Assembly: GCA_964519015.1 (NCBI GenBank) | Contig: CAZFHZ010000003.1 | Coordinates: forward strand, 13,371-77,370 | Length of the DNA: 64,000 nucleotides | Source of the DNA: an uncultured Gemmatimonadota bacterium | GTDB lineage: Bacteria; Blakebacterota; Blakebacteria; Blakebacterales; CAYUVJ01 | Direction of reading: 5' to 3' | In this document: positions 1-58,579 of the stretch, in pieces | Layout: each line of letters begins with the position of its first letter | Position numbering within the stretch: position 1 is the stretch's first letter | The notes under the pieces: model-generated | Seen by the model: the letters and a program-made list of their open reading frames with translations, nothing else | Databases searched by the model: none | Told to the model about the DNA's origin: nothing | Position numbers and translations under genes: made by a program

Positions 1-416
1 TCCAGGTAGCGGGCGCGCGCCACCGCGCCGGCGACCAGGTCCATCGCCTTGCGGGTCGCCGCGGCGCGGTCATTCGGGTGCACCCAGGCGCAGTGCTCGC
101 GCAGGTTGGCCATCTCCATGAGATAGGGATTCAGCCCCGCCTCGGCCACGCACTGTCGGAAGGTCGGCTCGTGCTGCCGCGGCGTGCATGAGGCGACCAC
201 CACCCGGTTGAGCTGGTGCACCCGGATCGCCTTCTTGATTTCATTCTGCCCCGGATCGGCGCACGTGTACTTGTTGCGCACCGCACACGCCACGTCGGGC
301 AGTGTCTCCGCGTATTGAGCGACTGCGCCGCAGTCCACCGCTCCCGCGATGTTCAGCCCGCAGTCGCACACGAAGACACCGATCCGGAGTGTGTCATCGG
401 TCTGCTTCGGGACCAT
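1..416 (-). CDS. HdrA-like protein, partial. Only the N-terminus (MVPKQTDDTLRIGVFVCDCGLNIAG...) is in the window; it has an MvhD-like Cys motif and strong similarity to the internal MvhD-like domain of the big HdrA at 2289..5387
   Basis: Start ATG at 414-416 with upstream AAGGGTGGG. Translation is paralogous to residues ~390-520 of the 2289..5387 product. Runs off the window start. Confidence 0.55.
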   Translation of the reverse strand, partial: MVPKQTDDTLRIGVFVCDCGLNIAGAVDCGAVAQYAETLPDVACAVRNKYTCADPGQNEIKKAIRVHQLNRVVVASCTPRQHEPTFRQCVAEAGLNPYLMEMANLREHCAWVHPNDRAAATRKAMDLVAGAVARARYL

Positions 417-560
417 CGGTGCCCACCCTTGGTCTCGGCGACCATCCCCCGGTGATCCACCCGCAGGACGGTTACCGTTCTAGGTCAGCGCTTCCGCGGC
501 CAGTTCGGCCACATCGCGCATCTCCATCCCGATCACCTCGTGGAGATCGGGGTCTCGCAT

Positions 561-1694
561 CTAGATCCCTATCTGGTCGCCCATTTCGGGGTCCTTCATT
601 GATAAAAGGAAATGGATCCGGCAATTGGGGCAGGCCGTCACCATGACCTGCGCCCCCGTGGACCGCGCTTCCTTCAGCCGGTCCACCTGGATGTTCTTGG
701 CGAAGCGGTCGCAGTTCGACCAGGTACCCCCGGCGCAGCAGACTGCGCCGGGGCCGTTCCGACCCATCTCGACCAGTTCGATGCCGGGGAGGGCCTCCAG
801 TACCCGCCGGGGAGCCTCGTAGACGCCGAGGTGCCGGCCCAGCCGGCAGGGGTCCTGGTAGGTCACCCGCCGCGGCTGCTCCCGCAGGTCCAGCCCGTCC
901 ATCCGGTCGGCCAGCCACTCGCTGATGTGGACCATCTCGGGCGGTCTTCCGCTCCAGAACGGAGCGTAGTCGATCCGCCAGGTGCGCAGGCACTCGGCGC
1001 AGGAGGTCACCAGCGTCTTCGCCCCGCTGGCCTCGACCAGTTCCACGTTGTGCCGGGCCAGCCGCTCGAAGTTCGCCCGGTCGCCGTTCCAGAGCAGGTC
1101 GTGCCCGCAGCAGCGCTCACGGGGGGAGACCACCGGGACCACTCCCAGCCGGTTCATCAGCCGGACCGCGGCTCGGGTGCCGGCCAGGGTGTCCATTTCC
1201 AGGTGGGGGAAAAGGGCGTCGTAGTACATCGTGCAGCCGGTCCAGTAGAAGACCTCCCCCTGTCCGGGCACGCACTCCAAATCCTTCTCCAGCCAGCCCA
1301 ATCGGTCCTGCTGGGTCCCCCCGGTCGCCATCATCCGCATCAGCGACTGGATCGCCCCTCCGTGCGGGCAGTGCGGCTCCAGGCCAGCGGTGTGGGCCAC
1401 CGCCCTCAGGTTCATCACTAGGGTGGTGTAGTCGACCTGGGCCGGACAACGCTGGCTGCACTGGCGGCAGGTCAGGCAGCTGAAGAGGTCCTCGCTCGCG
1501 AGCAGGGCCTGCACATCCCCCTGTACCGCGCTCAGCACGTGACGGCGCGGGCTGAGCGAGCCGCCCCCCCGGGCCACCGGACAGGAGGCGGTGCACTTGC
1601 CGCAATCGTAGCAAGCCCAGGCCCGGGCTTTCCGGACGGCCTCCAGGAGCCCTTTCACCCCTTCGCTCGCCATCGCCTCACCCCGCCCTGGCAC
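561..1694 (-). CDS. HdrD/GlpC-like iron-sulfur oxidoreductase: two 4Fe-4S ferredoxin motifs plus two CCG (Cys-rich, HdrB-like) domains
   Basis: CYDCGKCTASCP and CLTCRQCSQRCP motifs, followed by CCGHD... and CCAGG... CCG-domain signatures. Overlaps the upstream mvhD stop, consistent with operon coupling. Confidence 0.75.
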   Translation of the reverse strand: MPGRGEAMASEGVKGLLEAVRKARAWACYDCGKCTASCPVARGGGSLSPRRHVLSAVQGDVQALLASEDLFSCLTCRQCSQRCPAQVDYTTLVMNLRAVAHTAGLEPHCPHGGAIQSLMRMMATGGTQQDRLGWLEKDLECVPGQGEVFYWTGCTMYYDALFPHLEMDTLAGTRAAVRLMNRLGVVPVVSPRERCCGHDLLWNGDRANFERLARHNVELVEASGAKTLVTSCAECLRTWRIDYAPFWSGRPPEMVHISEWLADRMDGLDLREQPRRVTYQDPCRLGRHLGVYEAPRRVLEALPGIELVEMGRNGPGAVCCAGGTWSNCDRFAKNIQVDRLKEARSTGAQVMVTACPNCRIHFLLSMKDPEMGDQIGI

Positions 1695-2292
1695 CGGCCA
1701 GGGGGCTCTGACCGAGCGCCCGCACCTGGTCGGTGAACTCGTTTATGACCTGCGCGAACCGCGACCCTTCGGCGGCGCTGATCCACTCCAGACGCAGGCG
1801 CCCTTCCTCCAGCCCGAGCATCCGGACCAGCTGGCGGGTGATTTCGTATTGCTCTACCGCCCGCTCATTGCCCGAGATGTAGTGGCAGTCGCCGAAATGG
1901 CAGCCGGAGACGAGCACCCCGTCGGCCCCCTTCTCGAAGGCCCGCAAAACGAACGATGGCTGCACCCTTCCCGAACACATCACCCGGATGATCCGGAAGT
2001 GGGGCTGGTGCTGGATCCGGGAGACCCCCGCCGTGTCGGCCCCGGCATAGGAGCACCAGTTGCAGGCGAAGACCACGATCCGGGGATCCCCATTCGGGAA
2101 GGGACGGGGCTCCGATCCGCTGGAGCCCGGCGCCCGCTTCGCCGTGCGCTTCTTCCCCGCCCCTTGCTTCGTCACGCGATTCTTCCCGGTCCCCTGCCTG
2201 GCCGGTGTCTTCTTCGCCACGGCCTTCTTGGCCGCCCGTTTCTTCGGACCACTACCGGCGGCCCGCTTCCTTGATCCAGCCGGGGCGGTCAT
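1678..2292 (-). CDS. mvhD: MvhD-type (methyl-viologen-reducing hydrogenase delta-like) electron-transfer subunit with a Lys/Ala-rich N-terminal tail
   Basis: IVVFACNWCSYAGADTAGVSRIQHQPHFRIIRVMCSGRV...GCHFGDCHY is the MvhD signature. ATG at 2290-2292 overlaps the hdrA TGA stop (ATGA). The first ~75 aa are KKRAAKKAVAKK-type low complexity. Confidence 0.75.
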   Translation of the reverse strand: MTAPAGSRKRAAGSGPKKRAAKKAVAKKTPARQGTGKNRVTKQGAGKKRTAKRAPGSSGSEPRPFPNGDPRIVVFACNWCSYAGADTAGVSRIQHQPHFRIIRVMCSGRVQPSFVLRAFEKGADGVLVSGCHFGDCHYISGNERAVEQYEITRQLVRMLGLEEGRLRLEWISAAEGSRFAQVINEFTDQVRALGQSPLAGARAG

Positions 2293-5200
2293 GGTCCCTC
2301 CTCGGCCAGCACGGCATCGATCATCGCAACCATCTGGCGTTCGGTGAAGTGGCGGGCGGTGATGGCTCCCGAGGGGCACCAGGTGGCACAGGTGCCGCAT
2401 CCCTTGCAGAGGGAGGCGTTGACCTGCGCGGAACGTTGTCCGGGTGCGACCTCGAAGAGAGTGGCCGCGTGGTAGGGGCAGACCTCGGTGCAGGTTCCGC
2501 ACGCCCGGCAGAGGTCGATATCCACAACCGCCACCGCCGGGTTCTGGCGCACCCGGTCCCAAGCGAGCAGCACGGAGGCCTTGGCCGCCGCCGCCGAAGC
2601 CTGGGCGACCGTGTCCACAATGTCCTTCGGGCCCTGCACGGTGCCGGCCAGGAAGACCCCCTCGACCGCCGTCTCCACCGGGGCCAGCTCCGGGTGACGC
2701 TCCAGGAAGAACCCGTCCGAACCCAGGCTCGTCTTGAGCAGGTCGTGGAAGTGACGGGTATCCTCCGCGCGCGGCTTCATGCCCACCCCCAGCACGACCA
2801 GGTCGGCCGGGGCCTCGACCGTCACCCCCAGCAGCTCGTCACGGCACCGCACCGCGACCGCGCGGTCGCGGCCGATCACCTCCGGCTTCTCCCCTGATGG
2901 GATCCGTACGAAGAGGACCCCCGCGGCCCGCGCCTCCCGGTAGAGTTCCTCGGCGCCGGTCGAGATGGTTCGGATGTCCCGGTAGAAGACGGTGCAGTCG
3001 ATGCCACCGCTGGCCAGGTTGAGGGCCTGCTTGATGGCCGTCGGACAGCAGTAGCGCGAGCAGCCCGGGTAGGCTTTGGGATCGCGCGAACCCACGCAGA
3101 GGATGAAGGCGGCACTCTTCGGACGTCCCCCCTCCGAGTTGAGCGGGTCGAGGATGCTGCAGAAGAGCCGCTCCAGCTCCTCGTTGGTGATGACGTTGTG
3201 GAACTTCCGGTAACCGTACTCGGCGATGGGTTCGTAGAGGTCGGCGCCGAAGGCGAGCACGATCGCCCCCACCGCGAGCTCCCCCGCCCCCACCCCCTTC
3301 AGGATCACCCCGAAGTTGCCCATGAATCCGTCGATCGAGGCCACCTCGGTATCGAGCAACACCTGCGCGCCGCTCGCCCGGAGGCGGGCGATCTTCTCCG
3401 CCAGCACCTCGGCGGCGGAGCGCATGTTAGGATAGAGCAGCTTCAGGTCGGGACCGAGCAGCCGGCCTCCCAGCCGGCCGGTCTTCTCGACCAGGGTGAC
3501 CGGGAATCCCTGGACGGCCAGGTCGGTGGCGGCCTGGATGCCGGCGATCCCGCCGCCGACCACCAGCGCGGCCCGCGTCATGGGCATCTCCCCCGCCTCG
3601 AGCGGCTCCAGGTGCCGGGCCCGGGCCACTCCCATGCGGATCAGGTCCCGCGCCTTCAACTGGGCCTGTTCCCGGTGGGTGGCATGCACCCAGGTGCACT
3701 GGTCGCGGATGTTGACCATCTCGAAGAGGTAGGGGTTGAAACCGATCCGCTCGAGGGTCTGGCGGAAGATCGGTTCGTGGGTCCGGGGGGTGCAGGCGGC
3801 GACCACGACCCGGTTGAGCCGGTGCTCACCGATCATCGCGACCAGTTCCTCCTGCCCGGTCGAAGAGCAGGCGAAGAGGTGGGTCCGGGCGACCTCGACG
3901 CCCGGCAGACCGGCCGCATATTCAGCCAGCGCCTCGCAGTCCACCACCCCGCCGATGTTCACCCCGCAGTTGCAGACCATCACCCCGATGCGGGGTGTTC
4001 CCGACAGATCGAGCGGGGTAACCGTCTCCGGTTCCTCCTCGATCCGCTCCCCACAGAGGAAGAGTCCGGCCCGGGCGGCTGCCGCCGAAGCCTGGGCCAC
4101 CGCGTCGGGGATGACCTGCGGTCCCACCGCGCTGCCGCAGACGAAGATCCCCTCACGGGCCGTCTCCACCGATGAGACAGCCGGATCGCGGGGGGCGACG
4201 AAGCCGTAGCGGTCGGTCTCGATGCCCAGGATCCCGGCCAGCTCGGCTGCTCCATCGTTCGGCGCGGCCGCTACCGAGAGGACGACCAGGTCGGCCGGTA
4301 TCCTCATCTGCTCGCCGTTAAGGGTGTCCTCCACGTGGACGAGCAGAGTGCCGTCCTCGGGGACCGTCTCGATCTTGGCCGGCCGCCCCCGAATGTACCG
4401 GGCGCTCTCTTCCTCGTAGGAGCGGCGGACGAAATCATCGAAGCCCTTCCCAAAAGCGCGCAGGTCGGTGTAGAGGATGGTTACATCCTCGATGGCGGGA
4501 TCGTGCTGGCGCACCAGCATCGAGTCCTTGACCGCGTTCATGCAGCAGAAGCGGCTGCAGTAGGGACGGCCCCCCTCCCCCCGGGCCCCCACGCACTGGA
4601 CGAAGACCATCCGCTTCGGAGTCTTCCGGTCGGAGGGACGCACCACGTGGCCGCGGGTGACCCCCGAGGCGTTCAGCATCCGTTCCAGCTCCAGGCTGGT
4701 CACCACGTCGGGGTAGCGCCCGTAGCCGTAGTTGCCCAGGACCCGGGCGTCGAACTCCTGGAACCCGATGGCCACCAGGATTGCTCCCACGTTCCGCTCG
4801 AGCAGCTCCGGCTGCTGATCGAAGTCGATCGCTTCGACGTCGCAGACGCTCAGGCAATGGTTGCAGACCAGGATCTTCTTGTTCAGGCACGACTCCCGGT
4901 CGATGACGTAGGCGGCCGGGACCGATTGGGGGAAGGGGCGGTAGATCGCTTTGCGGGCCTTCAGGCCGACGTCGAACTCGTTTCCCCCCACCTGCGGGCA
5001 CGCCTCCTCGCATAGCCCGCAGGCCACGCACACGTCCTCCTTCACGAAGCGCGGATTCCGGCGCACCTGTACCCGGAAGCCGCCGGCCTCGCCTTCACAG
5101 CCGACCACTTCGGCATTGGTGACCAGCTCGATCAGTGGATGCCGACCGGCATCCATGGCCTTAGGCCCCAGGATTCATATCGAGCAGTCCATGGTGGGGA

Positions 5201-5387
5201 AGGTCTTGTCGAGTTGGGCCATGCGTCCGCCCAACGACGGCGACTTCTCCACCAGGGTCACCGGTATGCGCGCGTCGGCCAGATCGAGGGCCGCCTGGAT
5301 GCCGGCGATACCACCGCCGATGACCAGGGCTCGGTCTCCCCGCAACTCTTCGACGAGCTCGATGATGTCCTCAGGTTCCTGATCCAT
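2289..5387 (-). CDS. hdrA: Heterodisulfide reductase subunit A-like giant fusion protein (HdrA FAD/Fe-S module, MvhD-like domain, second FAD/ferredoxin module). Candidate selenoprotein: in-frame TGA at 5175-5177
   Basis: N-terminal exon-like ORF 5178..5387 (MDQEPED...[16 protein letters not shown]...[16 protein letters not shown]) ends at TGA and continues in the same frame ([23 protein letters not shown]...) into ORF 2289..5156. The HdrA family consensus here is TFPTxDCSxC-ILAPK, so the TGA sits where Cys normally is. RBS AAGAGGA lies upstream of the ATG at 5387. Downstream there is a second GGGIAG FAD motif, several CxxCxxCxxxCP motifs and an MvhD-like block. Confidence 0.7.
5136..5155 (-). 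promoter_or_regulatory. SECIS-like hairpin in the mRNA, 20 nt downstream of the in-frame UGA of hdrA: 8-bp stem UGGAUGCC/GGCAUCCA with apical loop GGUC
   Basis: Perfect 8-bp inverted repeat read from the sequence. Spacing from the UGA is in the range used by bacterial SelB-dependent SECIS elements. Confidence 0.4.
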
Positions 5388-5437
5388 GCCCCATCCTCTT
5401 GCATTGCCGGGGAGGACAGACCCTCTCCGGATACCGC

Positions 5438-6034
5438 TCAGTCGCTCTTGGCCGGGGTGGCGGCCACTTCGGCCTCCTCGCCCGTGGTCCCACCTCCGTA
5501 CGTCTTCTGCCAGTGCTCGTAACCGGCGTCGAAGGCTCTCAGATTGAGCTTCTCGGTCCCCTCTGGGACCGACTCGGCCACCGCCTGGCGCATCAGATCC
5601 GGATCGATGATGCCGGTGACTCCGGCCATGAAGCCCAGCATCACGATGTTCTGGACGATGACTCGGCCCAGATCCTCGGCGATGCGGGTCGAGGGGACCC
5701 CGTAGGCCTTCTGCTTCTTGGCCGGGTCGGGGGTGACCAGGTCACTCTCGTAGATGAGGGCACCGTCCTCGGCCAGCTCGTCCTTGTACTTGTCGTAACC
5801 CTCACCGGACATGATGACGAAGTAGTCGGGGCGGCGGATGTAGGGGTAGAGCACCTCCTCTTCTGAGAGCACCAGGGTGGCGCTGCAGGCGGACCCCCGG
5901 GCTTCCGGTCCGAAGCTCTGGATCATCGTGGCATGGTGGCCGGCGTTGATGGAGTAGGCCCGGCCCAGGATATAGCCCAGCAGGACCGACCCCTGGCCGC
6001 CCAACCCGGTGATGCGGAATTCGGTCTTAGCCAC
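5438..6034 (-). CDS. korC: 2-oxoacid:ferredoxin oxidoreductase, gamma subunit
   Basis: GTG start preceded by [17 protein letters not shown]...[12 protein letters not shown]... is the PorG/KorC family signature. Confidence 0.8.
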
Positions 6035-6923
6035 GGAGGTATCCTCCTTCCGGGGGCATCGGCACGAAATCGTCCCCGAGCTTGCTCCGATGCTGCTCGT
6101 GGTTGAGCTTGATCCAGTCGGGCTTCTCCTCGTCCACGAACTTCCCGCAGACGATCTTCTCCTGGAACTCAATGGCCACTTCCCGGGTGTCGGCCCCGTG
6201 CCGGATCTCCGCGTTGTCGTGGTAGTACTGCATCAGGTTGAGCCCGGTACCGAGCTTGTTGCGTCGGGCATAGAGCGTCGAGCAGGGTGTGATCACCTCG
6301 ATCAGGCGCAGTCCCTTCTTGGGCAGTGCCTCCAGCATCGACTTGGTGAGCCGCCGGATGTGCAGGCAGGTCCAGCGGGCCACATAGGTTGCCCCGCACG
6401 AGGCCACCAGGTGCGGCAGGTTGAAGGGGGGTTCGTAGCTGCCGTAGGGCATGGTCGAGGAGATGGAGGTCATCGGCGAGGTGGGAGCGTTCTGGCCTCC
6501 CGTCATGGCATCGGTGAAGTTGTTCACCAGGATGACCAGCAGGTCCATCTGCCGGCGGCAGGCATGGATCAGATGGTTGCCCCCGATACCCGAGAGGTCG
6601 CCGTCCCCGGAGAAGACCGTGACATTCAATTCGGGGCGACCGAGCTTGAGCCCGGTGGCGAAGGGGATGGCCCGTCCGTGGGTGGTGTGGAAGGCGTCCA
6701 GTTTCATGTAGCCGGCCACCCGGCCGGTACAGCCGATCCCGGAGACGATGGCCACTTTGTCCAGGTCGAGGTGGGATTGTTCCAGGGCCGTGGCATAACA
6801 CTTCACCACCGTCCCTATCCCGCAGGTCGGACACCAGATGTGCGGCATCCGGTCCATGCGGATGAAGGGAGCGATCGGGTGCTCTTCGGCCCGCGGCTGG
6901 GACTGCTCGACGGTCGCGCTCAT
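6027..6923 (-). CDS. korB: 2-oxoacid:ferredoxin oxidoreductase, beta (TPP-binding) subunit
   Basis: PHIWCPTCGIG...GIGCTGR...GDGD...GGNHLIHA TPP/Fe-S motifs. Confidence 0.85.
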   Translation of the reverse strand: MSATVEQSQPRAEEHPIAPFIRMDRMPHIWCPTCGIGTVVKCYATALEQSHLDLDKVAIVSGIGCTGRVAGYMKLDAFHTTHGRAIPFATGLKLGRPELNVTVFSGDGDLSGIGGNHLIHACRRQMDLLVILVNNFTDAMTGGQNAPTSPMTSISSTMPYGSYEPPFNLPHLVASCGATYVARWTCLHIRRLTKSMLEALPKKGLRLIEVITPCSTLYARRNKLGTGLNLMQYYHDNAEIRHGADTREVAIEFQEKIVCGKFVDEEKPDWIKLNHEQHRSKLGDDFVPMPPEGGYLRG

Positions 6924-8079
6924 TTGACGGCTCCCATGATGGCGTCACAGATGTCCTGCGGGTCGTGGACCCCGCCTCCGGCGTGCGGCACCCCGATGGC
7001 GGCGCACTTCCCGGCGGCGCAGCGTTCGACCTCCAGTACGTACTGGCCCAGGTTGATCTCCGGGACCACGAAGGCCTTCACCTTCCCGGCCAGTTCCCGG
7101 ATGCGCTTCTCCGGGAAGGGCCAGATCACGATCGGCCGGATATAGCCCACCTTGACCCCCTTCGTGCGGGCCATGGAGATGCCCATCCGCGCCACCCGGG
7201 CGGTGATCCCGAACGCGATGACGACCACCTCGGCGCCGTCGGTTTCTTCCTCGTCGAAGCGGACGATCGCCTCGGCGTTCTTCCGGATCTTGTCCACCAG
7301 TCGGGGCACGAGCTCCTTCTGGGCTTGCTCGCTCATGACCGGATAGCCGCGGTAGTCGTGGGTCAGTCCGGTGGTGTGGAAACGGTAACCGTCGCCGGCC
7401 CGGGCGAAGTCCGGGATCAGGCCGCCGTTGAGCTGGTAGGGCCAGTACTCCCCGGGTTTCCGGTCGGTCAGCCGGCGGGGCACCACCTCGATGGCGTCGG
7501 CCTCGGGGATGACCACCTTCTCCGTCATGTGGCCCACGCATTCGTCGAGCAGGAGCTGGACGGGCACACGGTACTGCTCCGCGAGGTTGAAGGAGTCGAT
7601 GGCCAGGTCGAAGGCCTCCTGGGGGGACTTCGGGCTGAGGGCGATGATCTCATAGTCCCCGTGGGAGCCCCAGCGGGCCTGCATGATGTCCCCCTGCCCG
7701 GTCATGGTCGGCAGCCCGGTGGAGGGTCCGCCCCGCTGGACGTTCACCACCACGCAAGGGGTCTCCATCATCGCCGCCAGACCGATGTTCTCCATCATCA
7801 GGGAATAGCCGGGGCCGCTGGTGACCGTGGCCGACTTGGTGCCGGTCCAGGCGGCACCCACTACGGCGGCCATGCTGGCCAGCTCGTCCTCCATCTGGAT
7901 GAAGGTGCCCCCCATGGTGGGGAAGCGGCGGGCGATCCGTTCGACGACCTCGGTGGAGGGGGTGATCGGATAACCGGCGGTGAAACGGCAGCCGGCGGCC
8001 ATCATCCCCTCACTGCAGGCGAAGTCACCATCCAGGTAATGGGCGCCGGTCAGTACGCCCGCGGGATCGGCTTTCAAGT
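6920..8079 (-). CDS. korA: 2-oxoacid:ferredoxin oxidoreductase, alpha subunit
   Basis: GYPITPSTEV...FIQMEDELAS...TSGPG motifs. Start chosen at TTG 8077-8079 behind AAGGAGGAG; the longer ORF to 8179 has no RBS. Confidence 0.8.
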
Positions 8080-8126
8080 TCTCTCCTCCTTCTCCACAGG
8101 TCTGTCCCTGGGCCGGGACCGTCCGC

Positions 8127-8408
8127 CTAGTGGGCCTGCTCGGCCGCCCCAGCGGGCAGCGAGACGCTGAAGATCGCAAAATCGGGACAGATCATCTCGC
8201 ACAGCGTACAGTTCACGCACTCCCCCTCCTTGACGATCTTCGGGGGATGGTATCCTTTCCGGTTGAACGCCTCGGAGACGGCCAGCACCCCCTTGGGGCA
8301 GTACTCCACGCAGAAGCCGCACCCCTTGCACTGGTCCTCGATGATCCGGACCGTGCCGTGCGGGATCCGTACCTGATCGGCATCCAGCGGTGTGCGCCAG
8401 TACTTCAT
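8127..8408 (-). CDS. korD: 2-oxoacid:ferredoxin oxidoreductase delta subunit (2x[4Fe-4S] ferredoxin)
   Basis: CKGCGFCVEYCP and CVNCTLCEMICP motifs. ATG at 8406-8408 overlaps the marR stop (ATGA). Confidence 0.75.
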   Translation of the reverse strand: MKYWRTPLDADQVRIPHGTVRIIEDQCKGCGFCVEYCPKGVLAVSEAFNRKGYHPPKIVKEGECVNCTLCEMICPDFAIFSVSLPAGAAEQAH

Positions 8409-8971
8409 GTCGGAATCCCCTTCCCGGAGACCGTTGCACGGTCCTTGATGAACGGACATCCCCCCCGCACCTCCCCAACCCGGCAATCGACCGAGAGGTA
8501 GGCGGCGCAACGCAGGCAGGGGCCGCCGCTCTCCGGATCGAGGTCGAGCAGGGAGAGGGAGATTCGCTCCAGCAGGTCGGCGAACGCATCGAGCTCGCCG
8601 ACGTCGAACCGGTCGAGCAGGGGATAGAGCCGCGCCGACTTGAGTTCCTCGTAGTTCAGGACGATGCGCCGCCCGACCGGGCTCAAGGAGAGGACCGTGG
8701 ATCGGCGGTCGTCGGGAGCCGGGGCTCGCACCACCAGCCCGTGTCGCTCCAGTTTGTCGATGTTCTTGGTGGCGGCCGGGGTCGAGACCCCCAGGAAAGC
8801 GGCGATGTCCCCGACGTGGTGCTCGCCGTTAAGGGACATCAGCTTGAGCAGGTGGAACTGGGAGAGGGTGAGCGGAAAGGGACAGACCTCCCGGATCAAC
8901 CGGGTCTCCAGGATATCCCGCACCGCCGAGGCGAAGATATGGCTGTTGCGGAGCAGCCGGAGGTAGTCCAT
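8405..8971 (-). CDS. MarR-family transcriptional regulator with a C-terminal Cys-rich extension (CLRCAAY...C...C)
   Basis: Winged-HTH MarR core (LTLSQFHLLKLMSLNGEHHVGDIAAFLGVSTPAATKNIDKLERHGLV). Translationally coupled to korD. About 40-aa tail with four Cys. Confidence 0.8.
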   Translation of the reverse strand: MDYLRLLRNSHIFASAVRDILETRLIREVCPFPLTLSQFHLLKLMSLNGEHHVGDIAAFLGVSTPAATKNIDKLERHGLVVRAPAPDDRRSTVLSLSPVGRRIVLNYEELKSARLYPLLDRFDVGELDAFADLLERISLSLLDLDPESGGPCLRCAAYLSVDCRVGEVRGGCPFIKDRATVSGKGIPT

Positions 8972-9037: not shown

Positions 9038-9067
9038 TTAACCCGGTTAACTGTTAACCCGGTTAAC
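9038..9067. promoter_or_regulatory. Two copies of a perfect 13-bp palindrome TTAACCCGGTTAA (9038-9050, 9054-9066), 70-100 bp upstream of marR and in the divergent promoter region for the plus-strand gene at 9338. Candidate MarR operator
   Basis: Seen directly in the sequence: GTTAACCCGGTTAACTGTTAACCCGGTTAAC. Position and symmetry are typical of MarR autoregulatory sites. Confidence 0.4.
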
Positions 9068-9337
9068 GATCGACCCGAGACTAGCCATCCGCTCCAAACC
9101 CTGTCAAGCAAAACTGAGGTAGATTTGGCCGCAGCGATACCTTGCGCCCGAACAACACGTTAGGAGTACTAATTAGGGACCCCTCGACCAGGGCCCGGCA
9201 GCCGCCTCCGGGATCGGCCGGAGACAGCACCGGGAGGAGCCCGCGAGCCGCCCGAACCCCGCTTGACCACCCCCCTCCCGGTACATAGACTGCACCTGCA
9301 GGCACGACACCCATCGCATCACATCGAGGTTCGCGTC

Positions 9338-9877
9338 ATGAGTGATCGGTACGAAGTACGGCTGAGCGGCGCAGGTGGCCAGGGGCTCATCCTGGTCGGC
9401 AAGATCCTCGCCGAAGCCGCTGCCATCTACGACAACAAGAACGCCACCCAGAGTCAGTCCTACGGACCGGAAGCCCGAGGCGGAGCCAGCCGTTCGGAAG
9501 TGATCATCAGCGACGGGGACATCGATTACCCCAAGGCGACCCACATCGATCTGCTGCTCGCGATGACCCAGGAAGCTGCGGACAAGTACGCCCAGGACGT
9601 CAAGCCGGGAGGCGTGATCATCGTCGACACCTCCTACGTCGAGCGGGCGCCGGCCGGTGAGTTCTCAGTCCACGCCTATCCGATCACCAAACTCGCGGAA
9701 GAGCAGGTGGGACGGGCCATCGTCGCCAATATCGTGGCGCTCGGCATGATCCAGAAGATCTCCGGTATCGTGAGTGAGGATGCTATCCTGACGGCTATCC
9801 GTTCCCGGGTCCCCAAGGGCACCGAGGAACTAAACATCAAGGCGTTCCGGATCGGTCAAGAGCAGGCCGCACAGTAG
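9338..9877 (+). CDS. 2-oxoacid:ferredoxin oxidoreductase gamma subunit (second copy)
   Basis: MSDRYEVRLSGAGGQGLILVGKIL...QSQSYGPEARGG... is a PorG/KorC paralog of 5438..6034. Possible sigma70 promoter TTGACC-17-TAGACT upstream. Confidence 0.75.
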   Translation: MSDRYEVRLSGAGGQGLILVGKILAEAAAIYDNKNATQSQSYGPEARGGASRSEVIISDGDIDYPKATHIDLLLAMTQEAADKYAQDVKPGGVIIVDTSYVERAPAGEFSVHAYPITKLAEEQVGRAIVANIVALGMIQKISGIVSEDAILTAIRSRVPKGTEELNIKAFRIGQEQAAQ

Positions 9878-9898: not shown

Positions 9899-12880
9899 AT
9901 GGATCCCCTGACCACCATCGAGACCCGGGTCGAAGCGCTCGGCAACCACTACCGCAAGTATGTCGAGGTCATTCGCCGTCACGGGGAGGGCCTCTTGTCG
10001 GCTCTGGAAGCCGACGGCAGCCTGATGCAGGTGCACCTGTGGGGCTCCTCCTCGTCACCGGAGGAGGAGATGCGCGGGATTGTGCATCTCCCGGGGGACG
10101 TGCCGACCCGTATCCGCCGGTTGAGCTGTTACTACGCCGCACAATACCTCCACATGCACTTCCGGCATCTCGACATCCTCTCCCTGGAGCGGACCTCGGG
10201 AGATCCCATCCAGGGGGCCTACTTGCGGTTCATGCGCGATATCGGCAACGATTTCCGGCAGCTCACCAAGGGGTACATGGAGAACGTGCTGGAACTCTAC
10301 CTGGTCGAGGTCGAACGGCCGGAGTTCTTCATCTGCTCGGTCGGGACCCGGGCCGATCAGGATGATATCGACGTCGGTATCATCACCTCCGGCGAGGGGG
10401 ATGACGGCGCCCTCAACCGCGCCGTACAGCGCCTGACCCAGCACATGCTGGTGTACGCCACTCCTCTCCACCTCTATCTGTCCGAACACGTCGGGAATGA
10501 GCTCTATACGAGCACCATCGCGGAGTACGACGACTTCCTGGATCGCCAGATCGGTGACGTCGTGATCCTCTCCGAACTGGTCAACGCCAAGATGATCCTG
10601 GGGAGCGAGCGGCTCTTCGAACGGTTCCAGCGGGAGATCATCGCCCGTTACTTCCACGGGACCGGCTGGGACGGACGTTACCACGAGGGTTTCCTGCGCG
10701 GCATCATGGGGGAGGCCCGTGCCCTGCTGGTCAGTCCCCTCCGGTCCGAATCGGTCGCGCCCAAAGAGGACGCCCTCCGGATCATCAAGCATCTGCTCTA
10801 CGCCAAGAAGGCCCGATACGCCCTGCCCGAGGTGAACGCCTGGGACATCATGGCCGCGCTCTCCGCCCGGGAGCCCCGGCTCGTGCTCCAGTATGAGCAG
10901 CTCCACCGATCGACCACCTTCCTGGAGATGTTCAAGTTCCAGCTGCAGATGTATGTGGCCCAGGAGGACCTCTTCCGCCTCGAGGAGATCGATCCGGGGC
11001 AACGCACCCGCATCGCCGAACAGATGGGGTACGGCTCCATAGGGAAGGTCGGGGCCTGGGAGCAGCTGGTCATCGACTACTACCGTCATGTCACCGAGTC
11101 GCGTTCCATCTGTGAGTACCTGTTGCGTGACCTCACCGGGCATCTGAGTGCCGTCTCCATCTTCACCGGTATGTTCCGGGCCCGTGCCGTGCCGGGACCG
11201 GACGGGGAAACCCGGGATGTCCTGGCCCGGGACTTCATCCACACCGCCCGCTTCTTCACCGGGACCCGGTATTGGGAGGATGTCCTCCACCGGCTGGAGA
11301 CCGACCACGCCCTCCTGGACGACTTCATCGACAGCTTCGAGCGGATGGACGAGGAGGAGGCTGCCGGCACGATCGAGGAGTACGTCGGCTGGACTGAGCA
11401 CACCCCGATGACCATCATCCGGCTGATCACCCTGCTCGGCCGGCACCAGGAGAACGTGCTCGGGGAGTCTGTCTTCCAGCGCATGGTGGACTGTTTCATC
11501 GACCAGCTGGAACACATCCCCTACATCGGCGATCGTCTGAGCCGGGTCTACGGCCACTTCCCCGAATACCTGCACCGGTTCCTCAACCACCTCCCCGAAC
11601 GACACTTCGAACGGCTGGAGTCCCTGCTCGCCCGGCCCCTCATTGACAACAGCCTCAACGAGTCCCGCCGGCACCTGGGGGAGCTCTGCGATATCCACCG
11701 CTGGTCGAGCCAGTACTTCCATCGTTTCTTCGTCCGGGTGATCGCCAACCACCCCGAGTACCTGACCGCCCTCCCCTACCCCGAACAGCTGCGGACCATC
11801 TCCTCGGGGCTGCTGGCCAAGGTCGATCTCCACACCGACCTGACCCTGAAGAAGGAGGTACTGGGCGACTACTACGACCTCGAGTTCCTGCGGGTCGGGA
11901 TCGGTACGCTGCAGGGGGTGGACCTGGCCGCGACCAACCGGGAGTTCACCCTCTTCTGCGACCATTACATCCAGAAGCTCTTCGACGTCTGCTGCGAGGA
12001 GGTGGAACGGGAGAGCGGAGCCCGGGCCCCCAGTACGGACACCTTCGCCCTGCTGGCGGCCGGTGGACATGCCCGCGGACAAGCCTACGACGACGATTAC
12101 GATCTCATCGCGATCGCCCATACGGACGACGAGCAGCTGCTCGGTTATGCGACCAAGGTCATCGTCCGGATGAACCGGGAGATCCTGAGACGGGGTGTGC
12201 TCCCCCACCATCGACTGGGGGACATCCTGGGTGGCTTCGTCAGCCCCGTTTCCCAGATCGTCACCTATCTCGATTCCGGCGACGAGGAGTGCTTCATCGA
12301 CCTCTCCCAGCTGCTCGGGGCCCGGATGCTGGTCGGGAGCGGGAACATGCAGACGGTGCTCCAGGAGAAGGTGCTCGCCCCCTTCGTCGTCCAGCGTCGC
12401 CGGGAATACCTGGAGTGCATGCTGGAAGAGATCCTCCAGCGCCAGGACGAGGAACCCTCCTGCGAGAAGGGAGAGGCCTGTAACATCAAGGAGACGCGGG
12501 GGGGACTCCGGGACATCGAGGCGACCATGCTGGTGCTGAAAGCATGGCTCGGCATCACCGAACCGATAACCGAGGACGCCTTCCACGAGCTGGAGAGACG
12601 GCTGCCCGACCTCGCCGGGATCCTGCGGACGCTCCACGGCGCCATGGACGAGTTGCGTACCGTGCGTGACCTCTACCGGCTGACGGTGGCCGCCGAGGAC
12701 ACCATCATCCCGGGTTACCTGGAGCGGATCGACCGCGTCCGTCGCCTGGCCGACCCGGGCCTCGATGCGATCACGGTGGAGGGGCTCCGGCGGACCCTGG
12801 AGGCATCGGCCGGGGCCTGCGGCGCGGTGATCGAGTACCTGCGCGGTCTGCTGGCTGCCCCCGAGGCAGCCGGAGCCTGA
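9899..12880 (+). CDS. Large (993 aa) tandem nucleotidyltransferase protein, GlnE/GlnD-like (two NTase-fold motifs). Function unknown
   Basis: Two GS/GlnD-type NTase signatures: ...ICSVGTRADQDDIDVGII... (N-terminal) and ...LLAAGGHARGQAYDDDYDLIAIAH... (C-terminal, a good match to GxxxRGExxxxSDxDL). Size and bipartite layout resemble GlnE (about 950 aa). No closer recognition is possible by eye. Confidence 0.4.
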   Translation: MDPLTTIETRVEALGNHYRKYVEVIRRHGEGLLSALEADGSLMQVHLWGSSSSPEEEMRGIVHLPGDVPTRIRRLSCYYAAQYLHMHFRHLDILSLERTSGDPIQGAYLRFMRDIGNDFRQLTKGYMENVLELYLVEVERPEFFICSVGTRADQDDIDVGIITSGEGDDGALNRAVQRLTQHMLVYATPLHLYLSEHVGNELYTSTIAEYDDFLDRQIGDVVILSELVNAKMILGSERLFERFQREIIARYFHGTGWDGRYHEGFLRGIMGEARALLVSPLRSESVAPKEDALRIIKHLLYAKKARYALPEVNAWDIMAALSAREPRLVLQYEQLHRSTTFLEMFKFQLQMYVAQEDLFRLEEIDPGQRTRIAEQMGYGSIGKVGAWEQLVIDYYRHVTESRSICEYLLRDLTGHLSAVSIFTGMFRARAVPGPDGETRDVLARDFIHTARFFTGTRYWEDVLHRLETDHALLDDFIDSFERMDEEEAAGTIEEYVGWTEHTPMTIIRLITLLGRHQENVLGESVFQRMVDCFIDQLEHIPYIGDRLSRVYGHFPEYLHRFLNHLPERHFERLESLLARPLIDNSLNESRRHLGELCDIHRWSSQYFHRFFVRVIANHPEYLTALPYPEQLRTISSGLLAKVDLHTDLTLKKEVLGDYYDLEFLRVGIGTLQGVDLAATNREFTLFCDHYIQKLFDVCCEEVERESGARAPSTDTFALLAAGGHARGQAYDDDYDLIAIAHTDDEQLLGYATKVIVRMNREILRRGVLPHHRLGDILGGFVSPVSQIVTYLDSGDEECFIDLSQLLGARMLVGSGNMQTVLQEKVLAPFVVQRRREYLECMLEEILQRQDEEPSCEKGEACNIKETRGGLRDIEATMLVLKAWLGITEPITEDAFHELERRLPDLAGILRTLHGAMDELRTVRDLYRLTVAAEDTIIPGYLERIDRVRRLADPGLDAITVEGLRRTLEASAGACGAVIEYLRGLLAAPEAAGA

Positions 12881-12952: not shown

Positions 12953-13822
12953 TCAGGCGACGGCGGCCGTCTCCTCCCCGACCTCCTCGGCGACCGTAGC
13001 CGGGTAGCGGACCTCGCCCCCCAGCTGGCGGATCAGTTCCTGGTAGCGGGCCGCATACTCCGGCCGGCGCTCGTTGTGGAGGACGCCGGTGACGATCTTC
13101 CCCTCCAGCTCCTCGGGACCCATCCTGGCCGCCTTGGCCACGTCCACTGAGTTCTCCTTCTGCCACCGGAGCATATCGGCGGGAGTCCCCATCTTGTTGA
13201 GTTTCCCGTAGATGGTCGGGCAGGCGACGGTGACCTCGACCAGGCTGAAGCCGGGGTTGAGCAGTGCGTCGCGGATCAGTTTCTCCAGCCGGCGGGCATG
13301 GAAGGCGGTCCCCCGGGCCACGTAGGTGGCTCCGGCCGCGATGGCCAGCTTCGGGATGTCGAAGGCGGGGTCGAGTTGACCATAGGGTGCGGTGGTGGCC
13401 TTGGAGCCCAGCGGGGTAGCCGGGGAGACCTGTCCCCCCGTCATCCCGTAGATGTAGTTGTTCACCATCACCACGGTGAGGTCGAGATTGCGGCGGGCGG
13501 CATGGATGAGGTGGTTGCCGCCGATGGCCGCGGCATCGCCATCACCGGTCAGGATCACCACCCGCAGGTCGGGACGCTGGAGCTTCACGCCGGTGGCGAA
13601 GGGGATGGCCCGACCGTGCAGCGAATGGATGGTCTGGAAATCGACGTAGCCGGTCACCCGGGAGGAGCATCCGATACCACTGACCATGCAGATCCCGTCC
13701 TTCGACCAGCCGAGTCCATCGATAGCGCGCAGGAGCGATTTGAGCATGATGCCGTCCCCGCAACCGGCGCACCAGATATGCGGGAACTTGTCGACGCGCA
13801 GGTACTTCTCGTAGTCGAACAT
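12953..13822 (-). CDS. 2-oxoacid:ferredoxin oxidoreductase beta subunit (second set)
   Basis: PHIWCAGCGDG...GIGCSSR...GDGD...GGNHLIHA. ATG at 13820-13822 behind GGAAGGTAGGGGG. Confidence 0.85.
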   Translation of the reverse strand: MFDYEKYLRVDKFPHIWCAGCGDGIMLKSLLRAIDGLGWSKDGICMVSGIGCSSRVTGYVDFQTIHSLHGRAIPFATGVKLQRPDLRVVILTGDGDAAAIGGNHLIHAARRNLDLTVVMVNNYIYGMTGGQVSPATPLGSKATTAPYGQLDPAFDIPKLAIAAGATYVARGTAFHARRLEKLIRDALLNPGFSLVEVTVACPTIYGKLNKMGTPADMLRWQKENSVDVAKAARMGPEELEGKIVTGVLHNERRPEYAARYQELIRQLGGEVRYPATVAEEVGEETAAVA

Positions 13823-13826
13823 CCCC

Positions 13827-15020
13827 CTACCTTCCGTTCTTCCCGTTCTTGGGGTCACTCTCGAGGTTCTGGACCGTCAGCAGGATCTCCTGGGGGGTGA
13901 TCGGTTCACCGTCCACCCGGCCCTTGTGCCGGACCGGCAGGTCGCGTCCGGCCACCCGTCGTACCTCACGCACGATCATCCCCTGGTTCATCTCCGGGAC
14001 CACGATCCCGTGCAGGTGTCCCAGGTGGCGCTCGATCGCCCGGTCGGGGAAAGGCCAGAGGGTCAGCGGCTGAAGCAGTCCTACTCGCAGGCCCTGCTCG
14101 CGTCCCAGCCGCACCGCCGCGCGGGCGGACCGGGCCGTCGAGCCGTAGGCGAAGATCATGTACTCGGCGTCCTCCAGCAGGTACTCCTTGACCTTGACAA
14201 TCTCTTCCTCATAGCGCACCAGCTTGCGCTGCAGCCGCTCCAGATTGGCCGTTACCTCGACCGGTTTGCCGGTCGGGAACCCGGTCGGGTCGTGGGTCAG
14301 TCCGGTGACGTGGAAACGGTAGCCCTCCCCGTAACCGGCCATGGGCGGGATGTCCGACTCCACGGGTTCGAAAGGGCGGTAGTGGGCCGGATCGGCCACC
14401 GGTTTCGGCCGGCTCCTCACTTCCACCCGCTCGGGGATGACGAGAGACTCTTCGGTGTGTCCCACGATCTCATCGAGCAGGAGCACCACCGGGATTCTGA
14501 AGTGCTCGGTGAGGTCGAAGGCCCGGACCGTCTCATCGTAGGTCTCTTCGACCGTCGAGGGGATCAGCACGATCACAGCATGGTCGCCATGGGGCCCCCA
14601 CCGGGCCTGCATGACGTCCCCCTGCGAGGGAGAGGTCGGCATGCCCGTGGAGGGCCCGCCGCGCATGACATCGACCACGACCACCGGGATCTCGTTCATG
14701 CAGGCGTACCCGAGGATCTCCTGCTTCAAGCTGAAGCCGGGACCGCTGGTGGCGGTCAACGACCGCGCCCCGGCGATCGAGGCCCCGACCGCAGCGCCGA
14801 TGGAGGCGATCTCATCCTCCATCTGGATGAAGGTGCCTCCCCGCTTAGGGAGTTCCTCCGCCATATGTTCAGCGATCTCGCTGGATGGAGTGATCGGGTA
14901 GCCCGCATAGAAGTCGCAGCCCGCGGCCAGGGCCGCTTCGGCGCAGGCTTCGTTCCCGGCCATGAAACGCCGGGTCCCCTTACGGATGGTCCCGGCCGGT
15001 GCAGAGGATCTGTCGTTCAT
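13827..15020 (-). CDS. 2-oxoacid:ferredoxin oxidoreductase alpha subunit (second set)
   Basis: GYPITPSSEI...FIQMEDEIAS...TSGPG, paralogous to korA at 6920..8079. Confidence 0.85.
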   Translation of the reverse strand: MNDRSSAPAGTIRKGTRRFMAGNEACAEAALAAGCDFYAGYPITPSSEIAEHMAEELPKRGGTFIQMEDEIASIGAAVGASIAGARSLTATSGPGFSLKQEILGYACMNEIPVVVVDVMRGGPSTGMPTSPSQGDVMQARWGPHGDHAVIVLIPSTVEETYDETVRAFDLTEHFRIPVVLLLDEIVGHTEESLVIPERVEVRSRPKPVADPAHYRPFEPVESDIPPMAGYGEGYRFHVTGLTHDPTGFPTGKPVEVTANLERLQRKLVRYEEEIVKVKEYLLEDAEYMIFAYGSTARSARAAVRLGREQGLRVGLLQPLTLWPFPDRAIERHLGHLHGIVVPEMNQGMIVREVRRVAGRDLPVRHKGRVDGEPITPQEILLTVQNLESDPKNGKNGR

Positions 15021-40728: not shown

Positions 40729-40764
40729 GGAAGGAATATACCCCCGGCTCCCGGGCTCACCAAG

Positions 40765-43992: not shown

Positions 43993-44165
43993 GGGGTGGG
44001 AGTATGCTACGGCGGCGCCCGGCTGCAAACCCCCGGATGGGGGCCGGTGTTACCGTTCTCCCTGTACGCACCGCGCGCCGGCGGTGTAGTCCTATCCTTC
44101 GGACGGGTCGTGTCGGCCCGCCACGACACCGCCGACGGCCACTCCCGTGACGTATGGAGGACGAC

Positions 44166-51443: not shown

Positions 51444-51537
51444 ACCCGGAAGGTAACCGTGCGAACCGACAGGAATACGGGGAAATTCAGGGTTGCCTCC
51501 CGCTCCTCCATCCTGCAAACTCTATAGTCCCTGACGG

Positions 51538-51613
51538 GCGAGAGTAGCTCAGCTGGTAGAGCTTCACGTTGCCAACGTGAGGGTCGCGGGTTCGAGTCCC
51601 GTCTCTCGCTCCA
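51538..51613 (+). tRNA. tRNA-Gly (anticodon GCC)
   Basis: Acceptor GCGAGAG/CTCTCGC, anticodon loop UUGCCAA, T-loop TTCGAGT. Confidence 0.85.
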
Positions 51614-58040: not shown

Positions 58041-58198
58041 GCGGGCGAGGATACCAGACGATCGCCCGAGTCACCATGCAGAAGACCGGGATTAAAAGTA
58101 GATGAATCCCGTGGCCTCCGGCCCGATTTGATTCCGACCGGCCAAGCTCTTAGACTCATTGACTAGTTGAGCCAAACCCATATCCACGGAGGTCGGCG

Positions 58199-58510: not shown

Positions 58511-58579
58511 ACCGAAAACCGTTGTCGGATGGGCACCGGACGCCCATCTTGGACATCCCGCGCAGCAGTCCGCATACGA

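Follow-up and report, generated by a model that had tools for sequence, protein, structure and literature searches.

The 64,000-nucleotide stretch of DNA analyzed here, called the window throughout, comes from an uncultured Gemmatimonadota bacterium (GenBank assembly GCA_964519015.1, contig CAZFHZ010000003.1, positions 13,371 to 77,370). Its first nine kilobases carry, on the minus strand, a cluster in which the genes of a four-subunit 2-oxoacid:ferredoxin oxidoreductase (OFOR; the enzyme of this cluster, KorDABC, is called KOR below) are joined to genes of heterodisulfide reductase (Hdr) type. The GC content of the window is about 67%, and because it is so high, the window contains many long spurious open reading frames (ORFs). 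Frames with a high GC content at third codon positions (GC3), together with domain scans, match the gene list of an earlier note on this DNA that was made from the letters without database searches. Domains were assigned by Pfam and NCBIfam profile searches with curated cut-offs and by structure matches to solved chains. All nine minus-strand genes named in the note were found with their predicted domains, and the profile parsing recovered the HdrA, FlpD, CCG and OFOR subunit domains as named.

The cluster is headed by marR (8405-8971; Pfam MarR, 55 bits), as it is in most of the related loci described below. The next gene is korD (8127-8408, or from an alternative start at 8459), which encodes the delta subunit, a ferredoxin-like protein with two [4Fe-4S] clusters that matches Fer4 families and contains two four-cysteine motifs. 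Its top NCBIfam matches, OGOR_delta and OorD, are below cut-off, and eight out of eight cysteines are invariant among 48 sequences. The alpha-subunit gene korA (6920-8077) has a TTG start after AGGAGG. Its product carries POR_N (241 bits) and PFOR_II (74 bits) domains, scores 545 bits against NF006412 with a cut-off of 411, and has 1yd7 and 8ys5 as its nearest solved structures. The beta subunit encoded by korB (6027-6923), the one assigned thiamine pyrophosphate (TPP) and a [4Fe-4S] cluster, contains a TPP_enzyme_C domain and is nearest to chain C of 8ys5, the beta subunit of a 2-oxoglutarate:ferredoxin oxidoreductase (OGOR), and korC (5438-6034; PF01558, 122 bits) encodes the gamma subunit. 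The signature domains of alpha, beta, gamma and delta are therefore all present. KorDABC may well be of the 2-oxoglutarate type.

The Hdr-type genes begin 50 nt after korC with hdrA1 (2289-5387), which has 1032 codons and is assigned as a selenoprotein and a fused HdrA dimer from its translation, its alignment to 5odc_A and an NCBIfam HdrA2 score of 1053 bits. It is followed by mvhD (1678-2292; FlpD, 178 bits), which encodes a [2Fe-2S] adaptor, and by an hdrD-like gene (561-1694; CCG, 95 bits, and Fer4 families) of the HdrC+HdrB fusion type, with two cubane-cluster motifs and two CCG domains. The likely start of this gene is the ATG at 1673, and the top NCBIfam match of its product is TfrB, below cut-off. 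The last gene, hdrA2 (1-416), runs off the window, which holds the first 138 codons of its open frame, corresponding to the N-terminal domain in the full genes of relatives. Elsewhere in the cluster the junctions are just as close: marR and korD abut or overlap, korD and korA are 49 nt apart, korA overlaps korB by 4 nt, korB overlaps korC by 8 nt, hdrA1 overlaps mvhD by 4 nt, and mvhD and hdrD either overlap by 17 nt or, with the alternative start, are 4 nt apart. The earlier note had given overlaps or gaps of 50 nt or less for the whole series; this holds for every junction except hdrD/hdrA2, where the gap is 144 nt because the 3′ end of hdrD is disrupted in the window. A promoter and terminator scan of the minus strand between positions 1 and 9400 found no terminator-like site, including the stretch between korC and hdrA1, and called no promoter on that strand. 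As the note had also stated, no hydrogenase or formate dehydrogenase is encoded in cis: a scan of about 45 ORFs over the 64 kb revealed none. The window's MvhD has an N-terminal extension of about 60 residues, rich in lysine, alanine and arginine, that is missing from the 151-159-aa MvhD proteins of two related loci (L080 and L082), and a similar basic tail is found at the C terminus of the HdrA2-MvhD fusion of a third (L001).

HdrA1 aligns with HdrA of Methanothermococcus (5odc_A) in three pieces with a total of 713 bits. Residues 18-390 of HdrA1 correspond to HdrA 144-511, the thioredoxin-reductase-like (TrxR-like) core with an inserted ferredoxin domain; residues 464-636 correspond to HdrA 3-175, the N-terminal [4Fe-4S] domain and the beginning of a second core; and residues 890-1026 correspond to HdrA 514-649, the C-terminal ferredoxin domain. 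The protein thus begins with TrxR-like unit 1, which has a pair of Cys-x-x-Sec (Sec, selenocysteine) and the inserted ferredoxin domain; the HdrA N-terminal domain comes next, then TrxR-like unit 2, which is divergent, and last the C-terminal ferredoxin domain. The Cys-x-x-Sec pair is present in unit 1 only. All four HdrA elements (the FAD domain with its motif, the N-terminal [4Fe-4S] domain, and the inserted and C-terminal ferredoxin domains) are present, distributed over the fused dimer. The earlier note had described the protein as an HdrA-MvhD-HdrA fusion, a description that had to be abandoned, as the middle domain shares 52% identity with the domain at the N terminus of HdrA2 (E = 1e-52) and matches MvhD with an E value of just 0.026, and Pfam gives no FlpD match in HdrA1. 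Since the protein aligns to 5odc_A in three pieces, with an HdrA N-terminal domain in the middle and no FlpD, HdrA1 is, by its alignment, a fused HdrA dimer. It lies below every curated HdrA equivalog cut-off (HdrA2, 1053 versus 1100; others, 795 versus 1400 and 708 versus 1300), and these scores make it a relative of methanogen-type HdrA and no member of a curated equivalog.

The candidate selenocysteine codon that the earlier note had pointed out in the giant hdrA is borne out by conservation. An in-frame TGA (5157-5159, minus strand) lies within TMDCSI*ILGPK of HdrA1. It takes the place of the conserved Cys of FPTxDCSIC-ILxPK, which in methanogen HdrA is the Cys of FPTNDCSICILAPK. In the 78 related loci introduced below, TGA was found in 125 out of 125 occurrences of the motif T-x-D-C-x-x-?-[ILVM][ILVM]-x-P-K in hdrA1 and hdrA2. 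Folding revealed a hairpin resembling a selenocysteine insertion sequence (SECIS), GGAUGCC-GGUC-GGCAUCC (5119-5136, minus strand), which starts 23 nt past the U of UGA and which 124 of 126 sites retain. Pairing in its core reaches 98-100%, compensatory changes turn C-G into U-A in 6 distinct sequences and G-C into C-G in 9, and the synonymous positions of the Asp-Ala-Gly-Arg-His codons are frozen across phyla; the hairpin matches no Rfam family. The window also encodes selA, the L-seryl-tRNA(Sec) selenium transferase (49989-51518, minus strand; Pfam SelA, 431 bits) and part of the Sec machinery on which the two HdrA selenoproteins depend, while neither tRNA-Sec nor selB was seen in the 64 kb. 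The features that mark a bacterial selenoprotein, namely a UGA at a conserved Cys site, a downstream stem-loop whose apical loop is G-rich, and Sec machinery (SelA), are all present. With TGA at 125 of 125 sites, the conserved GGUC hairpin and SelA, it is established, as far as sequence can do so, that the TGA of hdrA1 encodes selenocysteine. Public gene calls break both HdrA selenoproteins at the TGA (into 70 and 955 aa, and into 202 and 549 aa), and this HdrA family is therefore systematically misannotated. A tRNA-Gly(GCC) gene (51538-51613) comes after selA on the other strand.

The unit is larger than the window could reveal. Searches for sequences identical to the HdrD and KorB of the window gave no match, and the nearest contig is a metagenome contig whose HdrA1 is 97% identical (L079). 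This contig and a further relative (L001) show the genes that lie past window position 1. In relatives, the product of hdrA2 is an HdrA-MvhD fusion about 815 aa long, and the gene has a Sec codon of its own; after it in both loci come a gene for a 52-aa CxxC...CxxC Zn ribbon (znr), hdrC and hdrB, and then unrelated genes. The small Zn-ribbon protein (52 aa, PF09723-like, four invariant cysteines; L079 16830-16988, L080 20287-20445) is encoded between hdrA2-mvhD and hdrC in 48 of the 78 loci and persists even in reduced clusters without hdrD and hdrA2. Across 48-67 homologues all cofactor ligands are invariant: KorD and HdrC have eight such cysteines each, MvhD has five and the Zn ribbon four, and 21 cysteines of HdrD are invariant among 67 relatives. 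All ten CCG-motif cysteines, five in each domain for the non-cubane [4Fe-4S] clusters, are invariant in HdrD and HdrB of the relatives, and the HdrD of the window has all ten as well. Because of this invariance, both CCG sites, in HdrD and in HdrB, look catalytically competent.

The 3′ end of hdrD in the window carries a lesion, defined by comparison with L079 and 11 other HdrD C termini. A 48-nt patch of low GC content (561-608, minus strand) supplants the R-C-A codons, deletes Cys357 and introduces an in-frame TAG, after which the normal C-terminal 26 codons resume in frame (480-560). The patch encodes MKDPEMGDQIGI, which is closer to the consensus of other phyla than to that of the window's lineage. 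Its origin could be a genuine lesion, gene conversion or a chimeric assembly.

The conservation of the cluster was studied by scanning one genome per GTDB species for the giant HdrA, with the taxonomic labels of metagenome-assembled genomes taken as given. The scan yielded 196 relatives, and 78 loci were obtained from the best 80 of them. These loci are labeled Planctomycetota/Phycisphaerae, Acidobacteriota (Thermoanaerobaculia, Holophagae, Sulfomarinibacter), Gemmatimonadota, Latescibacterota, Zixibacteria, Eisenbacteria, Myxococcales/'Deltaproteobacteria', Anaerolineales (Chloroflexota) and, in one case, Pseudomonadota, so that at least eight phyla carry the cluster. The nearest of these GTDB loci (L046) is labeled Gemmatimonadota and is 85-89% identical. 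The dominant gene order is [marR] korD korA korB korC hdrA1 mvhD hdrD hdrA2 znr hdrC hdrB. Directly upstream of hdrA1, korA and korB are found together in 54 of the 62 copies whose upstream sequence is long enough, the other eight being second copies of hdrA1; downstream, hdrC and hdrB are present in 52 of 58. Five loci have korC relocated past hdrB to the far end of the cluster, and three loci without hdrD and hdrA2 retain hdrA1-mvhD-znr-hdrC-hdrB. A search from the side of KorA gave the same picture. KorA forms a tight family (385 aa, 77-92% identity, more than 120 database clusters, all uncultured), and hdr genes follow it in all three homologues that were sampled on long contigs. Identity between phyla is 77-82% for KorA and 63-73% for HdrA1, and such high values across many phyla suggest that the cluster has spread laterally as a unit.

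The flanks of the 78 loci contain no recurrent gene for a hydrogenase, a formate dehydrogenase or a protein resembling NADH dehydrogenase. The genes that do recur there are a GNAT acetyltransferase (21 loci) and a two-subunit korA'B'. The acetyltransferase, of about 230 aa, is encoded less than about 400 nt from either end of the cluster and on either strand (e.g., L075 19883-20578), and its gene does not adjoin the cluster of the window. Four loci (L025, L065, L067 and L071) have a second hdrA1 copy after hdrA1 that is broken by unrelated sequence about 1.4 kb long, which may be an insertion element.

Other versions of the cluster contain a module of the Flx type. One locus found with KorA (L081) encodes korDABC, a single HdrA of 670 aa, a 452-aa MvhD-like protein, a sulfhydrogenase-beta-like Fe-S protein, a sulfhydrogenase-gamma-like NAD(P)H/FAD protein and a GlpC/HdrD-like CCG protein, a gene set that is, by these resemblances, a module of Flx-Hdr type. 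A metagenome scan with the long MvhD-like protein added 80 loci. In about 20 of the metagenome loci, hdrA-flxD-flxBC-flxA is inserted between korA and korB, giving the order korD-korA-[hdrA-flx]-korB-korC-hdrD, and in some others korDABC is followed by the Flx module. Among 14 loci with room on both sides, the insertion between korA and korB is seen in nine, and four more (L096, L098, L114 and L154) are the tail of a long form, hdrA1-mvhD-hdrD-hdrA2-znr-hdrC-hdrB-hdrA3-flxD-flxBC-flxA-hdrD' (L098), which is also present at six acidobacterial genome loci. One locus (L111) that could be taken for kor with the fused-dimer hdrA1 and flx was rejected as a deletion remnant in which residues 1-140 of HdrA1 are joined to residues 51-291 of HdrB. 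The gap between korC and hdrA is 3-30 nt in other versions of the cluster. Collectively, KOR occurs with the module of the window (module I), with the Flx module (module II), or with both. In the interleaved version, a Rrf2-family regulator and a hemerythrin are encoded just upstream of korD in place of MarR (L089 4276-5385), which suggests sensing of redox state or O2.

Kor genes that are split around hdr and flx genes are hard to reconcile with any account other than that of a single functional unit. The earlier note had proposed such a unit from the window alone, and its proposal now has strong comparative-genomic support in the 54 of 62 hdrA1 copies, in the order that dominates the 78 loci and in the interleaved arrangements. 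By these gene orders, the linkage of KOR and Hdr is far beyond chance.

Control by MarR, also suggested in the note, is plausible by conservation. The C-terminal tail of MarR contains the motif C-x2-C-x7-C-x8-C (C152, C155, C163 and C172), which is invariant in 40 homologues. Two tandem copies of TTAACCGGGTTAA (9054-9066 and 9038-9050), recognized by reading the sequence, form a candidate MarR operator. They are located just downstream of a promoter-like pair, TTGACA (9102-9107) and TAGTCT with an 18-nt spacer, which was read by eye and is under the threshold of the promoter scan. A TTAAC-N3-GTTAA palindrome, allowing two mismatches at most, is found 80-110 nt upstream of marR in 38 of 42 loci, compared to 2% of random 140-nt control windows. 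A MarR with a four-cysteine tail acting at this candidate operator would probably restrict expression of the cluster to suitable redox conditions.

Several known systems resemble the cluster in part. In the tubeworm symbionts Ca. Endoriftia and the Escarpia symbiont and in Thioflavicoccus mobilis, Rubin-Blum et al. (2019, PMC6315080) described korABCD interspersed with flxABCD-hdrABC and tfrAB in a cluster for the reductive tricarboxylic acid (rTCA) cycle, and they put forward the hypothesis that Hdr-based bifurcation hands low-potential electrons directly to OFOR. Mitchell et al. (2024, PMC11636981) showed that the kor/flx/hdr genes of Endoriftia are co-expressed as an operon. The earlier note had not recognized the arrangement as a characterized one; this stands as far as biochemistry is concerned, whereas a kor/flx/hdr cluster with the same hypothesis had already been described (PMC6315080) and shown to be co-expressed (PMC11636981). 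The two clusters, compared by description, share a four-subunit Kor enzyme placed among HdrA/HdrBC-type genes and a second, dimeric KorAB nearby or elsewhere. Compared to the symbiont cluster, that of the window lacks the Flx module, tfrA, ATP-citrate lyase or other rTCA genes, pntAB and rnf, and has instead the fused-dimer Sec-HdrA, a free MvhD, HdrD, a second Sec-HdrA-MvhD fusion, the Zn ribbon and the Cys-tailed MarR. The Flx module and rTCA genes (aclAB, tfrAB) are absent from the window and from L079, and Flx occurs in sister clusters only. The hosts differ as well, being sediment Planctomycetota, Acidobacteriota, Gemmatimonadota and others and not sulfur-oxidizing Gammaproteobacteria. 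The cluster of the window is thus a distinct variant of a KOR-Hdr arrangement known so far as a hypothesis.

In another system, the class II benzoyl-CoA reductase of Geobacter metallireducens, the BamE protein of the BamDEF module consists of two HdrA units fused into a dimer, and its inserted ferredoxin domain supplies BamC/BamB (bioRxiv 10.64898/2026.04.10.717634). Like HdrA1, BamE has a Cys-x-x-Cys/Sec pair in the N-terminal unit only and one N-terminal, one inserted ferredoxin and one C-terminal ferredoxin domain, a likeness in reported architecture. The order of BamE, F and D is also that of the window, with the HdrA dimer followed by an MvhD-like BamF and an HdrD/HdrBC-like BamD, and the low-potential output goes to a separate Fe-S/catalytic module, as is proposed here for KOR. 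Compared to BamDEF, the cluster has neither the BamB/BamC tungsten enzyme nor BamGHI; its MvhD has no Sec and no BamF extension, the Sec being in HdrA; and the HdrD cysteines are intact in the window's relatives, in contrast to most BamD, where the distal cluster is disrupted. The fused-dimer HdrA1 extends the BamE architecture beyond aromatic-ring reduction.

The sister clusters (L081, L084, L089 and L098, among others) resemble FlxABCD-HdrABC, the NADH dehydrogenase/heterodisulfide reductase of Desulfovibrio (Ramos et al. 2015), in carrying an MvhD-like FlxD, a sulfhydrogenase-beta-like FlxB/C, a sulfhydrogenase-gamma-like, NAD(P)H-binding FlxA, HdrA and a CCG protein. Compared to that system, the window version has no Flx genes, and in the sister clusters the low-potential partner is presumed to be KOR instead of free ferredoxin. 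HdrA2B2C2 of Methanosarcina acetivorans is ferredoxin-dependent, with F420H2 reacting at HdrA2 (Yan, Wang and Ferry 2017, PMC5296606). The second module of the window resembles it in having an HdrA-MvhD fusion with HdrC and HdrB, and NCBIfam HdrA2 is the top match for both HdrA proteins; the differences are that HdrA1 is under the HdrA2 cut-off (1053 versus 1100), is bacterial and contains Sec, that there is no F420 or CoM/CoB context, and that a Zn-ribbon gene lies between hdrA2 and hdrC. Supercomplexes of methanogen Hdr-Mvh/Fdh-Fmd (Fdh, formate dehydrogenase) are described as delivering low-potential electrons directly from Hdr via a polyferredoxin to the CO2-fixing Fmd. Here the partner would be a TPP/Fe-S OFOR, and no hydrogenase or Fdh is encoded in cis. 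A paper on the carrier lineage Sulfomarinibacter merely lists 'electron-bifurcating heterodisulfide reductase complexes'.

These observations form the basis of a mechanistic proposal. We favor, with moderate confidence, the view that the genes from marR to past the start of the window form one conserved transcription unit and that KorDABC exchanges electrons directly with HdrA-type bifurcating modules. The 4-8 nt overlaps between genes and the lack of a terminator-like site on the coding strand are signs of coupling. The couples of 2-oxoacids with acyl-CoA and CO2 have potentials of about -500 to -520 mV, compared to -320 mV for NAD(P)H and about -140 mV for the methanogen heterodisulfide. Because its couple, at about -500 mV, matches the low-potential branch, KOR would be the low-potential arm of a reversible HdrA-type bifurcating system. 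The mean of -500 and -140 mV is -320 mV; a three-terminal device of KOR, NAD(P)H and a disulfide would therefore operate near equilibrium and be reversible. KorD would be wired to the inserted ferredoxin domain of HdrA1, as the Fmd polyferredoxin or BamC is in the known complexes, and the CCG proteins HdrD and HdrB (with HdrC) would be the high-potential arms acting on a disulfide-type substrate. In those known complexes, mid-potential electrons enter by way of MvhD-like proteins. A mid-potential two-electron partner would feed or drain the flavin via MvhD. In the sister versions this partner is evidently NAD(P)H on the sulfhydrogenase-gamma-like Flx subunit. In the window version, candidates for it are a hydride carrier reacting at HdrA2, as F420H2 does with HdrA2B2C2 of Methanosarcina, an unlinked hydrogenase or Fdh acting via MvhD and, more speculatively, one of the two thiol/disulfide sites. 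The net reaction would be 2 XH2(mid) + acyl-CoA + CO2 + RS-SR' <-> 2 X + 2-oxoacid + CoA + RSH + R'SH.

The earlier note had assigned KOR the opposite place, as an input that docks MvhD and whose electrons are then bifurcated. This version does not survive on thermodynamic grounds, as a bifurcated input from KOR would call for an acceptor with a potential near -800 mV or lower, and there is no gene for one; a couple near -500 mV fits the low arm, and the NAD(P)H-binding Flx of the sister clusters is the obvious mid-potential partner. As to the direction of the KorDABC isoenzyme, we lean toward reduction, that is, toward 2-oxoacid synthesis, because a second, conventional OFOR adjoins the cluster and because in Endoriftia the Hdr-linked four-subunit OGOR is co-expressed with the rTCA cluster while the dimeric KorAB is located and regulated separately (PMC6315080, PMC11636981).

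A number of points weigh against this picture as a whole. The 2-oxoglutarate models rank among the best matches of the subunits, yet all of their scores are below cut-off (OorA, 365 versus 579; OorB, 213 versus 364; OGOR_delta, 65 versus 125). A physical complex of KOR and Hdr is proposed from gene order only, and the mid-potential partner is not encoded in the window's version of the cluster. MvhD canonically docks a hydrogenase or a formate dehydrogenase, which may be encoded elsewhere in the genome. The hdrD of the window lacks the invariant Cys357 and ends at a TAG 27 codons early. Finally, the oxidative direction is equally possible, since the window has no rTCA genes alongside the cluster and the phyla that host it consist mostly of heterotrophs.

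Three other explanations of the gene arrangement were considered. KOR may be a plain electron donor, with electrons passing from KorD to HdrA/MvhD and on to the CCG sites in a 2-oxoacid:disulfide oxidoreductase that does not bifurcate, an explanation that we regard as credible and yet unlikely. It would be analogous to the route in Methanosarcina from CO through CO dehydrogenase (CODH) and ferredoxin to HdrA2B2C2 and heterodisulfide, and it would serve thiol homeostasis or a respiratory disulfide carrier. Yan et al. (PMC5296606) demonstrated ferredoxin-dependent heterodisulfide reduction by an HdrA-MvhD fusion with HdrB2C2, and a module for NAD(P)H, H2 or formate is absent in cis from the window version. 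The apparent control of the cluster by a Cys-rich MarR, the presence of MsrPQ and peroxiredoxin-like genes 7-10 kb away, and host phyla that are largely heterotrophs oxidizing 2-oxoacids would also suit a donor. However, such a path would waste about 350 mV and would leave three flavins, two Sec-HdrA units and two separate CCG sites unexplained. Furthermore, the NAD(P)H module of the sister clusters makes a three-terminal device, and a conventional OFOR for ordinary oxidation already adjoins the cluster.

Direct contact between KOR and Hdr would be dispensable if the Hdr module worked with an unlinked hydrogenase or Fdh and KOR were coupled to it through a soluble ferredoxin pool, being co-transcribed just for its use or supply of the ferredoxin that Hdr oxidizes or reduces. 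The case would be like that of methanogens in which mvh and hdr are unlinked. In Thauera, korAB is co-located with benzoyl-CoA reductase purely as a ferredoxin-regenerating system, and the adaptor to MvhAG and FdhAB is canonically MvhD. Genomes frequently have Hdr unlinked from its partners (PMC6085437). However, the cluster has no free ferredoxin gene, and the tight KorA clade adjoins hdr genes in every sampled context; moreover, kor genes that are split around hdr/flx, or a korC placed behind hdrB, are hard to understand for enzymes that share a soluble carrier. We consider this explanation improbable. The 50-nt gap between korC and hdrA1 could be read as the boundary of two unrelated operons that became neighbors by accident, but this is effectively refuted by the comparative data: synteny extends over about 78 genomes of at least eight phyla and dozens of metagenome contigs with interleaved orders, no terminator-like site was found, and the corresponding gap narrows to 3-30 nt in other versions.

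Within the favored view of KOR as the low-potential arm, a more specific and doubtful idea is that the window version is a self-contained two-stage bifurcation cascade, with two Sec-HdrA units in series and two intact CCG sites but lacking any module for NAD(P)H, H2 or formate. In such a cascade, one thiol/disulfide couple would be the two-electron donor and another the high-potential acceptor. If this is true, heterotrophic sediment bacteria would drive the reductive carboxylation of an OFOR from thiol-level reductants or, with the cascade reversed, harvest the excess energy of 2-oxoacid oxidation, and stacked Hdr modules would make up a new kind of CO2-fixing, energy-coupling supercomplex.

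The function and substrates of bacterial HdrABC homologues outside methanogens are a long-standing question. The cluster offers a compact and highly conserved test case for it, in which the enzyme at one end of the wire is known, as is its redox couple. It is carried by roughly 200 species-level genomes, from sediment phyla that are abundant but uncultured. If KOR is the low-potential arm, this would be the second example, after the methanogen Fmd-Hdr, of bifurcation feeding a CO2-fixing enzyme directly, and estimates of how much energy reductive carboxylation costs, or 2-oxoacid oxidation yields, in anoxic sediments would have to be revised.

The genes next to the cluster include the second, conventional OFOR, identified with Pfam, which consists of gamma' (9263-9877, plus strand), korB' (12953-13858, minus strand) and korA' (13827-15020, minus strand). 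A gene for a 993-aa GlnE-like protein (a GlnE/GlnD-like adenylyl/uridylyltransferase by Pfam; 9899-12880, plus strand) lies between them. It appears to be co-transcribed with gamma', and korA'B' is convergent. L079 shares this layout of the second OFOR and the GlnE-like gene, and in about 10 acidobacterial loci a two-subunit korA'B' is found directly upstream of marR. Between 15897 and 18649 (minus strand), an MsrQ-like ferric-reductase membrane protein, an MsrP-like molybdopterin oxidoreductase and two AhpC/TSA-redoxin proteins are encoded in a row; this MsrPQ/AhpC set for the repair of oxidative damage is 7-10 kb from the cluster. At 58001-62000 the GC content falls from about 0.68 to 0.55-0.60 right after a tRNA-Cys gene (58580-58655). 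This low-GC stretch may be an island that was integrated at the tRNA gene; among its products are a PQQ/beta-propeller protein and one with a beta-lactamase fold. An ORF of 1416 aa (39946-44196, plus strand) with no Pfam match, located where the GC content is unusually high (0.70-0.73) and the AT skew strong, may encode a low-complexity or repetitive protein.

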